From IMG/VR virus record IMGVR_UViG_3300045988_145635: a DNA stretch of 64,000 nt; one strand, given 5' to 3'. A model generated the notes under the pieces. It saw only the letters and a list, made by a program, of their open reading frames with translations, had not been told where the DNA came from and made no database searches. The DNA is from a virus (taxonomy: Duplodnaviria; Heunggongvirae; Uroviricota; Caudoviricetes). This document shows positions 36,085 to 39,211 of this stretch, piece after piece. The first letter of the stretch is position 1, and every line of letters starts with the position of its first letter. The position numbers and the translations under genes were made by a program.

Positions 36085-36148
36085 GCGCCATCATTGGCGC
36101 GTTATGGTGGAAGTATTGGAAACGAAAAAAGCGCCCATAGTGGGCGCT
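36085..36148. terminator. pair of bidirectional terminator hairpins closing the minus-strand island
   Basis: GCGCCA-TCAT-TGGCGC and AGCGCCCA-TAG-TGGGCGCT, both flanked by A-runs upstream and T-rich sequence downstream. Confidence 0.6.
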
Positions 36149-36153
36149 CGATT

Positions 36154-36390
36154 TTATTTATGTAAACTGATTTCAAATCCCATTTCTACAAACGCTTTTA
36201 ACATTAAAAATATATCAGCGTCATTCACGTCTGCTTTTTTTCGCTCCTGGTCGCTCAATAAGTCAATTTTGCGCGTCGTTTCATCTATAAGCTCGACTGC
36301 GCGCCCAGCGTAACCAGCGATCCCAGCGATGCGATTAACATAATATTCGTTATGGACGTTAACGCCAGCGATAAGAACAAACATGATCAA
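36154..36390 (-). CDS. hypothetical protein
   Basis: 78-aa ORF, last gene of the minus-strand array. Confidence 0.35.
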   Translation of the reverse strand: MIMFVLIAGVNVHNEYYVNRIAGIAGYAGRAVELIDETTRKIDLLSDQERKKADVNDADIFLMLKAFVEMGFEISLHK

Positions 36391-36655: not shown

Positions 36656-37306
36656 TTACGCTTTGAAAGCATCAGCTAGATAATTGTAGAAATCATTCTT
36701 GATAAAGCGATATTGCTGCGTACCAGCTTTCGCGCTCCCAGCTCCTTTGACTTTTTCAACAAGTCCAAGACGTTCGCAAAGATTGATCAACTGGTTGGCT
36801 TGAGTATAGCCAGCGTCCAATTTAATCTCGCACGCTTTTTTCGCTTCATTCATTAAATCGAAAACAGCGCCATTGGTGAACGTGTCGATCTCGTCGTTAA
36901 TCATATCGATTAAAGCGAATACACGAGATCCTGACATATCAGCGACGGAATAAACACATTTACCAGCTTTAATGGATTTAACCAGATAAACCAGTTTTTC
37001 CAGTGAATAACTATTAGTCATTGCATCACGGAAAAATACTTCTGGCGCTTGTTTACTTGCTTTGATCGCATAGTAGAAAACAGAGCATAATTTTTCGTCT
37101 TCTACTGCGTTTACGACGTTGTTGATGAAGTAAGCAAGTTTAGTGGTAGCAGCTTGCATATTTGCTTTGTCTGCTTTGGTGTGCGTACCATTTTTATAAT
37201 GTTCATTATATGTTTGAGTTGCCAGATCTGCTTTTTCGCGCAGCTCGTCGGATACAATGGATGCAGCTTCAATGATGGATTTTTTAGAAATGATAATGTT
37301 AGCCAT
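36656..37306 (-). CDS. hypothetical protein
   Basis: 216-aa ORF in the AT-rich minus-strand island. Confidence 0.5.
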   Translation of the reverse strand: MANIIISKKSIIEAASIVSDELREKADLATQTYNEHYKNGTHTKADKANMQAATTKLAYFINNVVNAVEDEKLCSVFYYAIKASKQAPEVFFRDAMTNSYSLEKLVYLVKSIKAGKCVYSVADMSGSRVFALIDMINDEIDTFTNGAVFDLMNEAKKACEIKLDAGYTQANQLINLCERLGLVEKVKGAGSAKAGTQQYRFIKNDFYNYLADAFKA

Positions 37307-37587
37307 GATTTCAATCCTTAGTATAAAATTTAATTGTCGTTAGCGATTTCGCTTTCGATGAGTCCAATTATCGATATGAGAAAAAAGATTGCAAGCGTTT
37401 TTTAATTTTTTTTTGCAGGGCGAAAGTCCTAGAAATAAATACGAGATCGTCGAAGGTGTTCCCTAAATAAATAATCGATTCCGGCTTTAGACCTTATATA
37501 TTTATACGGGGTAGAATTGAAAGAGTATAAAATGAATGGCGTGTAAAATAATAACCGGACTTAGCCGGTTATTACCCTTATAGGAAT

Positions 37588-37887
37588 TTACATCTTTTTT
37601 GCATAGTTCCTGATTTCTTTTATTATATATTCCTGAAAACGCTCCGAGTTTTCGCATTTGTCTTTTGAAGACTCATCAAGTCCCAACTTGCATCCCGCAA
37701 CGATCAGTCCATCTTGATATGCAGCGCCTAAAGCCATGCTTAGGTCTAACATGCACAAATCGTAGTCTTCCGCCTTTGAACACAACTCTGTAGAGACACG
37801 TTGCACTCGTTCAATGCTATTTTCTTGAGAAAATGCGGAAGAGCTAAAAATGAAAGTTAAGAATGTGAATGCTGCTACAGTTTTCAT
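37588..37887 (-). CDS. small secreted Cys-containing protein (paralogue A)
   Basis: N-terminal signal peptide MKTVAAFTFLTFIFSSSAFS; four cysteines with spacing similar to the paralogue at 37963-38259. Confidence 0.5.
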   Translation of the reverse strand: MKTVAAFTFLTFIFSSSAFSQENSIERVQRVSTELCSKAEDYDLCMLDLSMALGAAYQDGLIVAGCKLGLDESSKDKCENSERFQEYIIKEIRNYAKKM

Positions 37888-37903
37888 ATCAATATCCTAA
37901 AAC

Positions 37904-37955
37904 GGTAAAATTCGGTCAACCAAATCGAAGAAAACAAGAATTTTTCTGCCGTCTT
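37904..37955. repeat. 52-bp direct repeat, copy 1 (second copy at 38270-38321)
   Basis: GGTAAAATTCGGTCAACCAAATCGAAGAAAACAAGAATTTTTCTGCCGTCTT, about 94% identical to the copy that encodes the C-terminus of the 38263-38826 ORF. Confidence 0.8.
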
Positions 37956-37962
37956 CATACAT

Positions 37963-38259
37963 TTATCGGACTGACTCTACAGCCTTACGATTGGTGTCAA
38001 AAAGCGCATCAACGAACAGCAATGAAGAGTTGTTCAATTCACATGGTTCATAATTTTCCACCTGTTCACATAGTTGAGCGGTCTTACCTATGTTTATCCC
38101 TAGTTTTACTGCTGCTGAAAGTTGAAACATGCAAACTGGAATATTCTGAGACGTTGAGCATACGTCATGCATCAGCGACTTAATAATTGCAATATCATCC
38201 TTTGCATTGGCTGAAATTGAGTAAACTAAAAATAATGATGTCAATAGTATCGATTTCAT
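37963..38259 (-). CDS. small secreted Cys-containing protein (paralogue B)
   Basis: Signal peptide MKSILLTSLFLVYSISANA; four cysteines. Confidence 0.5.
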   Translation of the reverse strand: MKSILLTSLFLVYSISANAKDDIAIIKSLMHDVCSTSQNIPVCMFQLSAAVKLGINIGKTAQLCEQVENYEPCELNNSSLLFVDALFDTNRKAVESVR

Positions 38260-38262
38260 AAC

Positions 38263-38826
38263 TCAAAAAGGTAAAATTCGTTCAACCCAATCGAAGAAAA
38301 CAAGAATTTTTCTGCCGTCTTTCAACTTAAGTGTGACTAGGCAGGCATCAACGCCATCTGACGTTCCCTCAATTTCGCGGCCGTCTGCCATGTAGACCCT
38401 TATAGATTGGCCGTTTTGATAAGCCTTGCGACATATCTTAAAAAAATCACGACGTGATGGCTGGTTGTCTACATAGTCAGGGTGTATTGTTAGTCTCCCT
38501 TTGAAATCGTAATCAATGCCATCAATTACGCCTGATTCAATTGTGCTAATGCGCTCAAGTGGGAGCCTTATACGATTTTCTTTGTCAAATGGAGTTGGAC
38601 AAAGGTCAACTTTGTTACGAGATGACATGAGACCATAAACGTACATGCAAAACACTTGGCCGTCTTCGAGAGTGACTCTTACAGGAAATTTAGCCCTCCG
38701 CCAGAAGAGCAAGGTGCGTTCAGCATGTTCGTAGTCTCGCGGCCATACTTCAGCCGGTATGCCGTAGGTGATATCTTTCGTCGTCATATCATTATAAAGT
38801 GGTTGGCAATATGTCCATTGTACCAT
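38263..38826 (-). CDS. hypothetical protein
   Basis: 187-aa ORF; alternative start at ATG 38787 would avoid overlap with the lipoprotein gene; its last 19 codons lie in the 52-bp repeat. Confidence 0.45.
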   Translation of the reverse strand: MVQWTYCQPLYNDMTTKDITYGIPAEVWPRDYEHAERTLLFWRRAKFPVRVTLEDGQVFCMYVYGLMSSRNKVDLCPTPFDKENRIRLPLERISTIESGVIDGIDYDFKGRLTIHPDYVDNQPSRRDFFKICRKAYQNGQSIRVYMADGREIEGTSDGVDACLVTLKLKDGRKILVFFDWVERILPF

Positions 38827-39211
38827 CCCAGGTAGTGAAAACCCGATATGTTTTCGAATCGCCCTGCTTTAGCTTTATTTCTCGTTCCATCCTGGAGGGG
38901 TTAAATGCGCAAAGACCTGAACTTTCAATTGATGTCCCAACGATCCACTCTCCTTCGTTAAGGTAGAAAGTTGCTTTTTCACCAGGTTCTAGCTTTGCAG
39001 CCGTTTCTCCATTGATGAAAATGGAAGCGTTACATGCAGAACCAACCAGCCCTTTGTCTCGAACTATTGTTAGACTAGACTCATGTGGTGTTTGATATTT
39101 AAATATTCTGCTTTGAGGTGCATCCTTTGCCTTTGAAATAGATATAGACGAAGACGAACACCCAATTAGTGACGTGGTTAGCATTAGAATCATTAAGTTT
39201 TTTGCTTTCAT
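38792..39211 (-). CDS. putative lipoprotein
   Basis: MKAKNLMILMLTTSLIGCSSSS: signal peptide with LIGC lipobox; 139 aa. Confidence 0.6.
   Translation of the reverse strand: MKAKNLMILMLTTSLIGCSSSSISISKAKDAPQSRIFKYQTPHESSLTIVRDKGLVGSACNASIFINGETAAKLEPGEKATFYLNEGEWIVGTSIESSGLCAFNPSRMEREIKLKQGDSKTYRVFTTWDGTMDILPTTL

Follow-up and report, generated by a model that had tools for sequence, protein, structure and literature searches.

The window, the whole stretch of 64,000 nucleotides of viral DNA that was analyzed, is, judging by its matches, part of an SSU5-like phage-plasmid of Escherichia coli. In the phage collection, the region examined matches Salmonella phage SSU5, the Escherichia phages CMS-2020a, PhiR41_1, and Cyrano, and Klebsiella phage pJN2-26. 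It also matches 593 plasmids of the PLSDB, nearly all non-mobilizable and approximately 105–115 kb in length, the nearest in E. coli being NZ_CP126951 (99.5% identity over the 1.9-kb query). The phage-plasmids of the SSU5 group have variable repertoires of plasmid-like genes (Pfeifer et al., PMC7969092).

The relevant genes all lie on the minus strand, in the order lipoprotein gene, FljA-like gene, gene B, a 21-codon remnant, gene A, and terminator (Table 1). The FljA-like gene is, on profile evidence, a full-length member of the “repressor of phase-1 flagellin” family, in which the repression of a flagellin is a putative function. The Pfam profile PF03614 (Flag1_repress) is matched over positions 1–170 of 170, with an E value of 4e-80 and 268 bits (cut-off 24), and PHROG 1444 with an E value of 1e-97. 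The mechanical ORF reaches position 38826 and would encode 187 aa, compared with the 174 aa from the PGAP start. In its relatives, this gene carries the label “transcriptional regulator”, and no paper was found in the literature on the FljA homologue of the SSU5-like phage-plasmids or on its locus. The gaps between stop and start codons are short, with 3 nt between the TGA of fljA and the ATG of B, 0 nt between the TAA of B and the ATG of the mini-ORF, and 9 nt between the TAG of the mini-ORF and the ATG of A. A search for an internal terminator within the gene string found none. The hairpin at the end of the string (37550–37573) has a fold z-score of −2.7, and the terminator element can be aligned across the loci L001–L013.

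Table 1. Features of the locus, in the order in which they are read on the minus strand.
Feature	Position	Strand	Description
Lipoprotein gene, 139 aa	38792..39211	-	First of the tightly packed string; PHROG 890 “lipoprotein” (E 8e-51); “putative lipoprotein” in SSU5
FljA-like gene, 174 aa from PGAP start	38263..38787	-	PF03614, PHROG 1444
Repeat copy 1	38258..38321	-	True 3' end of the fljA-like gene: last 19 codons, stop TGA, 3-nt spacer, then the ATG of B
Gene B, 98 aa	37963..38259	-	Sec signal, 4 Cys; E. coli-associated allele; PHROG 9536 (E 3.5e-27)
ATGTAT	37957..37962	-	Presumed remains of the leader that once followed B in the fljA-B parent; source of the mini-ORF ATG; breakpoint 37956/37957
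Mini-ORF	37962..37897	-	21 codons: 37957-37962, the 57-nt remnant, and the TAG stop
Repeat copy 2	37900..37956	-	57-nt (19-codon) fragment of the fljA-like gene, probably from an fljA-A parent; putative pseudogene remnant
Native fljA-to-A junction	37888..37899	-	TAG stop overlapping the Shine-Dalgarno-like AGGA, 9-nt spacer, ATG of A
Gene A, 99 aa	37588..37887	-	Sec signal, 4 Cys; mainly Klebsiella-associated allele; PHROG 27673 (E 1e-61)
Terminator	37541..37587	-	Leader ATTCCTATAAGGG, hairpin 37550-37573, U-tract; after the last stop in all four layouts

A Sec-type signal peptide and four cysteines, arranged alike, are found in the products of both A and B, which are 27% identical in amino acids over 60 residues, while the global alignment of the two genes as DNA gives 61.7% identity, compared with 59.8 ± 1.5% in shuffled controls. 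Gene A is 95% identical between the Klebsiella and E. coli elements, and B is 75% identical to its variant, B'. In the PLSDB, A is found in 151 records (138 Klebsiella, 10 Escherichia, and 3 Cronobacter) and B or B' in 111, of which 108 are Escherichia. Given this division between host genera, A and B are old alternative alleles of one locus, which differ in their association with the host genus. A profile search of 1.84 billion representatives recovered five clusters of the A/B family at 50% identity, the other matches being spurious PKS-linker sequences. No Pfam domain of the local library matched A or B, and no BLAST link to the T4-like phages was found for the family. The AlphaFold model of the secreted protein (pLDDT 54) is too poor for use, and a weak “ValRS_modifier” label is the sole clue to what A and B do.

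The repeat itself consists of the segments 37904–37955 and 38270–38321, which differ at 2 of 52 nt (96% identity), and no second match was found in any of 100 dinucleotide-preserving shuffles of the window. The repeat search lengthened the pair to 37892–37955 and 38258–38321, which share 91% identity over 64 nt and are spaced 366 nt apart. Read on the minus strand, the copy at 38270 encodes the final 19 residues (KDGRKILVFFDWVERILPF) of the ORF 38826..38263, while the copy at 37904 sits inside the mini-ORF (MYEDGRKILVFFDLVDRILPF), which begins where B ends. The remnant retains only the last 19 of the 174 codons of its source gene, and its breakpoint abuts 6 nt of terminator leader. From each copy to the start codon that follows, the distance is 3 nt (GTT) for B and 9 nt (GATATTGAT) for A.

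An earlier note on this DNA had described a 52-bp repeat of about 94% identity, each copy placed just upstream of the start of a secreted paralogue, and far more strongly conserved than the paralogues themselves. This description holds, including its coordinates, translations, and adjacencies, and the 96% identity of the repeat stands against 27% between the two proteins and a DNA identity at the level of the shuffled controls. Of the two refutations that had been envisaged, chance similarity is ruled out by the shuffles, and a duplication introduced in sequencing by the recovery of the junction in eight complete plasmids that were assembled independently (from Korea, China, Thailand, the UK, Canada, and elsewhere, and from different hosts). 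An assembly or sequencing artefact is a general possibility, with nothing further in its favor, and its probability is negligible: the two copies are unlike at 2–6 positions, and the genes that flank them are not the same.

A base-level reading of 16 related loci revealed four layouts. The first, fljA alone, is found in SSU5, PhiR41_1, and pCP53-113k, and the second, fljA-A, in Klebsiella pJN2-26 and in the E. coli elements NZ_CP133922, NZ_CP027369, and NZ_AP039430. The third, fljA-B, or its equivalent with B', is found in CMS-2020a, NZ_OP378623, NZ_CP034066, and NZ_CP019283, and the fourth, fljA-B-remnant-A, in the window and eight plasmids. The search for relatives with varying numbers of secreted genes, as proposed in the earlier note, has thus recovered elements with none, one, or two. 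In all four layouts, the leader AT(n)CTATAAGG and the hairpin come directly after the last stop codon, and the slot therefore lies exactly between the stop of fljA and the terminator. The junctions are allele-specific, that of the A type reading CCGTTTTAG GATATTGAT ATG and that of the B type CCTTTTTGA GTT ATG. The 3' segment of fljA is duplicated only in the fourth layout, and the single-cassette elements have no second copy.

The occupation of one exact place in all of the elements, from the fljA stop to the terminator leader, would suit a repeat that serves as the recognition or attachment site of a cassette-capture system, integron-like or otherwise site-specific, which places secreted genes behind fljA. 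The absence of a second copy of the segment from the single-cassette elements makes such a system extremely improbable, as do the unlike junctions of A and B, with spacers of 9 nt vs. 3 nt and different stop codons. Neither inverted repeats nor an attC-like hairpin occur at the boundaries (the two copies of the repeat fold with z-scores of −1.26 and +1.06), no recombinase domain was found in the seven neighboring proteins scanned (approximately 4 kb), and the junction in the window lies inside a coding sequence, without a recognizable motif.

Extant plasmids carry the sequences found on either side of this junction. The fljA-B element NZ_CP019283 (L012) has TAAATGTATAAGGG and the terminator after B, and its B is 1 nt from that of the double-cassette group represented by L007, while the fljA-A elements NZ_CP027369 (L011) and L013 have a fljA 3' end that matches the remnant. 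After B, L012 reads ...GTCCGATAAATGTATAAGGGTAATAACCGG; L011 reads ...CTTAAGTTAGAAGACGGCAGAAAAATTCTTGTTTTCTTCGATTGGGTTGAACGAATTTTACCGTTTTAGGATATTGATATG, and the window ...GTCCGATAAATGTAT/GAAGACGGCAGAAAAATTCTTGTTTTCTTCGATTTGGTTGACCGAATTTTACCGTTTTAGGATATTGATATG, where the slash marks the joint. At the breakpoint itself, L012 has CGATAAATGTATAAGGG, L011 has TTAGAAGACGGCAG..., and the window CGATAAATGTATGAAGACGGCAG, and the leader stretch is CGATAAATGTATAAGGGTAATAACCGG in L012 vs. CGATAAATGTAT/GAAGACGG in the window. The junction of the window, TAAATGTAT/GAAGACGG, is located 19 codons ahead of the fljA stop, with at most 0–3 nt of microhomology at the joint. The window thus follows the fljA-B form up to the sixth nucleotide of the terminator leader, and from there the fljA-A form, beginning 19 codons ahead of its fljA stop. 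The ATG of the mini-ORF is already present in the leader TAAATGTAT, where it starts nothing in L012, and it is in frame with the fragment.

On the other side of the joint, the remnant is the 3' end of the L011 fljA through to the ATG of A, except for two substitutions, TGG>TTG (W>L), which is restricted to the subgroup of the window, and GAA>GAC (E>D), which is found in all of the double-cassette plasmids. The remnant carries the A-type junction, CCGTTTTAGGATATTGAT, and not the B-type junction, CCTTTTTGAGTT, of the window's own fljA, and the form CCGTTTTAGGATATTGAT(A/G)TG is also present in the fljA-A elements L004, L005, L011, and L013. It is closer to the extant fljA-A plasmid, with 1–2 nt differences in the 57 nt of the fljA 3' end, than to the neighboring fljA in L007. 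The divergence of gene A between the window and the fljA-A plasmids (3 differences in 300 nt) is comparable to that of the remnant, and given this low divergence of both, the identity of the repeat reflects the recency of the event, and selection is not needed to account for it. Over fljA and B together, L012 and L007 are 89% identical, and as L012 is inexact over the whole of fljA, the parents can be described only as L012-like and L011-like. Both of the remnant-specific substitutions fall at residues (W and E, in FDWVERILPF) that do not vary among the 17 intact FljA C-termini examined, the sources of which are E. coli, Shigella, Salmonella, and Klebsiella-type elements. This pattern may reflect a relaxed constraint on the peptide of the remnant, one or two substitutions being too few for a statistical test of much power.

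The double layout is rare. The junction was found in 8 of 72,556 plasmids of the PLSDB and in 7 of 5,426 complete E. coli genomes, where it is plasmid-borne every time, and the exact 29-nt junction pattern is absent from the IMG/VR viral contigs and the GTDB representative genomes. The eight plasmids form two subgroups, which have an identical junction and share the GAC change. Ahead of the repeat, in the 5' part of fljA, the subgroups diverge by approximately 15%, and in B by approximately 6%, but there is almost no difference between them over the stretch that runs from the junction to the terminator and includes A. An identical junction with divergence confined to the upstream portion indicates that the double layout originated once, in a single event, after which mosaic homologous recombination affected the upstream portion. 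In principle, the single-cassette forms could instead have arisen from the double form by deletion, given that homologous recombination between the 57-nt repeats would yield fljA-A and a deletion at the TAT/TAT microhomology would yield fljA-B.

The second copy of the repeat is most probably (with a probability of roughly 85%) a recombination scar, left by the stacking of two diverged alleles of sister phage-plasmids. In this family, the slot between the stop of the FljA-like gene and the common hairpin terminator holds nothing, A, or B, and in the lineage of the window one illegitimate crossover, either non-homologous or with minimal homology, would have united two sister elements. We infer the direction and the mechanism of this crossover from present-day sequences. 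The first partner would be an fljA-B element, broken 6 nt past the stop of B, in the terminator leader (TAAATGTAT/AAGGG), and the second an fljA-A element, broken 57 nt (19 codons) ahead of the fljA stop. The product would be the string fljA-B-[57-nt fljA fragment]-A-terminator, in which the second repeat copy would be a pseudogene fragment that owes its high identity to the recency of the event. The scar would have carried with it the native initiation region of A, with a UAG that overlaps the AGGA Shine-Dalgarno and a 9-nt spacer, so that A may still be expressed from the common transcript. The ATG of the mini-ORF would be an existing triplet of the leader, in frame by chance, and, more speculatively, the ribosomes that end at the UAA of B might reinitiate at the mini-ORF and relay the coupling to A.

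The reading of the earlier note, a cassette duplication with selection on this segment, survives in part, in that the 3' end of a gene is indeed duplicated ahead of two homologous secreted genes, the number of which varies. The duplication of a cassette and the selection are not supported, given that A and B cannot be aligned as DNA, the event is recent, and both parental single-cassette forms and the exact breakpoint can be recognized. In its full form, this model supposes the tandem duplication of a unit composed of the fljA 3' end and a secreted gene, with the genes then diverging to 27% identity while purifying selection or ongoing gene conversion kept 52–64 nt almost unchanged. The layout does resemble two 366-nt units in tandem, and the 3' end of fljA is 98% identical among the E. 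coli lineages, compared with 81–88% for the rest of the gene. This tandem duplication is nevertheless very unlikely, with the double layout restricted to eight close E. coli plasmids among approximately 590 members of the family, and the A-only and B-only forms spanning genera. The 3' ends of fljA in Klebsiella and SSU5 vary at many synonymous sites, and there is therefore no constraint at the nucleotide level across the family. The A-type junction of the remnant, and its better fit to an extant fljA-A plasmid than to its L007 neighbor, also run against the model, as do the changes particular to the remnant, which are non-synonymous and affect invariant residues, and the failure to find an RNA structure. 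A tandem array as such was rejected, with TRF showing no array of 366-nt period and the DNA identity of A and B no higher than in the shuffles.

The remnant was also considered as a functional element. The folding of the repeat as RNA, a check suggested in the earlier note, gave no significant structure in either copy on the minus strand (the z-scores being those cited above), and the covariance models of Rfam 15 had no match at E <= 1 on either strand of 37300–38900. An RNA element was rejected on these folds and the empty Rfam scan. A weak sigma-70-like sequence, TTGACC-17-GATATT (37919..37891, minus strand), lies in the remnant, but it was rejected as an internal promoter for A, because its −10 hexamer ends 3 nt before the ATG of A and promoter-like matches are no more frequent in the region than in shuffles.

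Another possibility is that the scar has been co-opted, with the mini-ORF being translated by termination-reinitiation at UAA-AUG and retained because the expression of A needs the remnant. The mini-ORF would end at the UAG that overlaps the Shine-Dalgarno of A, and would thus reproduce the native coupling of fljA to A. The in-frame ATG does adjoin the TAA of B, the mini-ORF is intact in all six of the double-cassette plasmids examined, and its stop and 9-nt spacer are identical to those of the native fljA-A junction, in a tightly packed string with gaps of 3 nt and 9 nt and no internal terminator detected. Retention of this kind is, however, doubtful. The ATG was already present in the terminator leader of the fljA-B parent, where it started nothing, and thus did not evolve for a role in reinitiation, while the close kinship of all the double-cassette plasmids means that an intact mini-ORF carries little weight. 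Both substitutions are non-conservative, at residues invariant in FljA, and coupling may be unneeded, in that A has its own AGGA Shine-Dalgarno 8–9 nt before its ATG and there is no significant structure that would have to be unfolded. The string fljA-B-miniORF-A would allow termination-reinitiation to be passed along, but an actual dependence of A on the translation of the mini-ORF appears unlikely. The remnant probably still supplies the native ribosome-binding region of A, in its last 20 nt or so. The string may be co-transcribed, and the remnant may have a role in the translation of A.

The fljA fragment might even act as a portable adapter, which relays the coupling through the 21-codon ORF and gives each cassette a homology arm. 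This is quite improbable, but if it were true, recombination with the 3' end of the resident fljA could add cassettes to the stack, exchange them, or remove them, and phage-plasmids would have, behind a flagellin-repressor gene, a simple cassette array driven by homology.

Considered as a recombination scar, the feature is ordinary, a further example of a familiar type of event, with no new mechanism. The mini-ORF would be a gene fragment, and should not be annotated as a gene. The locus shows that the SSU5-like phage-plasmids have, behind their FljA-like gene, an accessory slot that is polymorphic, with two old alleles that are now and then stacked, and suggests that illegitimate recombination between co-resident sister elements may build gene arrays. 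Given the direct repeat of 57–64 nt, B is predicted to be unstable, and liable to a 366-bp deletion by homologous recombination. The more interesting matter is the role in the host of the secreted four-cysteine proteins and of the FljA homologue of the phage-plasmids.

Among the closest parallels are the partial-gene duplicates that arise from unequal or illegitimate crossover between alleles, as gene-fragment pseudogenes where tandem paralogues meet. As in these duplicates, the truncated 3' end of an upstream gene lies between two stacked downstream genes, the breakpoint is non-homologous, both parental configurations are extant, and changes are accruing at otherwise invariant residues. The difference is that the partners here would be A and B, distinct alleles at one polymorphic accessory locus on sister phage-plasmids, so that the event is one of stacking rather than the duplication of one gene.

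A second comparison is with the orphan toxin-tip/immunity modules of the CDI (cdiA-CT/cdiI) and Rhs systems, in which the displaced downstream modules are still preceded by part of the conserved coding sequence from upstream. These fragments provide homology for later recombination, and alternative small genes accumulate behind one conserved gene. Unlike these systems, the present locus has no indication of a toxin or immunity function, only one remnant, and an FljA-like regulator as its upstream gene, and there is no sign that the remnant serves switching.

The slot also resembles the “morons” and accessory slots of phages, and phage-plasmids, where small host-interaction genes are present or absent at a fixed position, with conserved genes on one side and a terminator on the other, in otherwise syntenic elements. 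Classical morons have their own promoter and terminator, whereas A and B would depend on the transcript of the upstream operon and on the terminator already in place, and lie directly against the stop codon ahead of them. The source gene of the remnant, in turn, belongs, at full length, to the same family (PF03614) as the FljA of the Salmonella fljBA operon. Unlike fljBA, it is located in a phage-plasmid, and the region examined has neither a flagellin gene nor a hin invertase next to it.

The fljA-like gene is strongly mosaic. Across its 5' 500 nt, elements share anything from 77% to 100% identity, with the differences arranged in dense blocks, whereas several Escherichia coli lineages show 98% identity over the last 57 nt. 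This near-uniform end, set against the mosaic 5' part, suggests that recombination breakpoints cluster near the 3' end of the gene. The slot upstream of fljA is also variable, as seen in the related loci L002, L005, L007, and L011. It is occupied by a lipoprotein gene on the minus strand in the window, SSU5, and several other elements, and by an 801-nt gene in the opposite orientation, with no assigned function, in PhiR41_1, NZ_CP133922, CP099126, and NZ_CP027369.

When PLSDB was queried with the fljA 3' end, the number of places matched exceeded the number of records by 11, and eight of these surplus places are accounted for by the double-cassette plasmids, in which the order is fljA, gene B, fljA remnant, and gene A. 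The other three may represent dimers, cointegrates, or further stacking events, as may six of the 14 surplus places recovered in the PLSDB search with the window region.

Gene A, one of the two small genes behind fljA, is broken in some plasmids. In NZ_CP027369, a nonsense change (GGA>TGA) leaves a product of 59 aa, and in NZ_CP041426, a 1-nt insertion close to the 3' end gives a 128-aa product that reads into the terminator. This damage suggests that some E. coli hosts can do without gene A. Gene B has no PGAP annotation in the RefSeq double-cassette plasmids, where the interval between the fljA-like gene and gene A is left blank; its relative B' (75% identity) does carry an annotation elsewhere, in plasmids outside this set.

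Further downstream, a 34-nt direct repeat (88% identity) flanks small genes that follow a 216-aa gene. It contains the palindrome AAAGCGCCCATAGTGGGCGCT, followed by T-rich sequence, and looks like a repeated terminator-type hairpin.

Positions of the features discussed (P0014 genes are numbered within their own loci)
Feature	Locus	Positions	Strand
Repeat, first copy	window	36128-36161	
Repeat, second copy	window	36623-36656	
Gene A	window	37588-37887	minus
Gene B	window	37963-38259	minus
fljA-like gene, near-uniform 3' end	window	38266-38322	minus
fljA-like gene, mosaic 5' part	window	38322-38826	minus
Variable upstream slot	window	38792-39211	
P0014 gene	L017	1040-1345	
P0014 gene	L018	909-1214	

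A third member of the A/B family, the protein P0014, is 45% identical to A. Its surroundings are not those of a phage-plasmid, with no fljA upstream in either locus, and its neighbors are holE-like (DNA_pol3_theta), DUF2913, hha, and dcuC genes.

The A family, including P0014, carries the precomputed Pfam label PF26829, "ValRS_modifier". A search for a BLAST link between this family and the T4-like phages found none, and the match to PHROG 1256, "valyl tRNA synthetase modifier", is weak (E 4e-5) and includes the signal peptide. Both A and B look like exported four-cysteine proteins, which is at odds with the "ValRS_modifier" label; this label may be misleading, or the biology of the A family may be due for re-examination.
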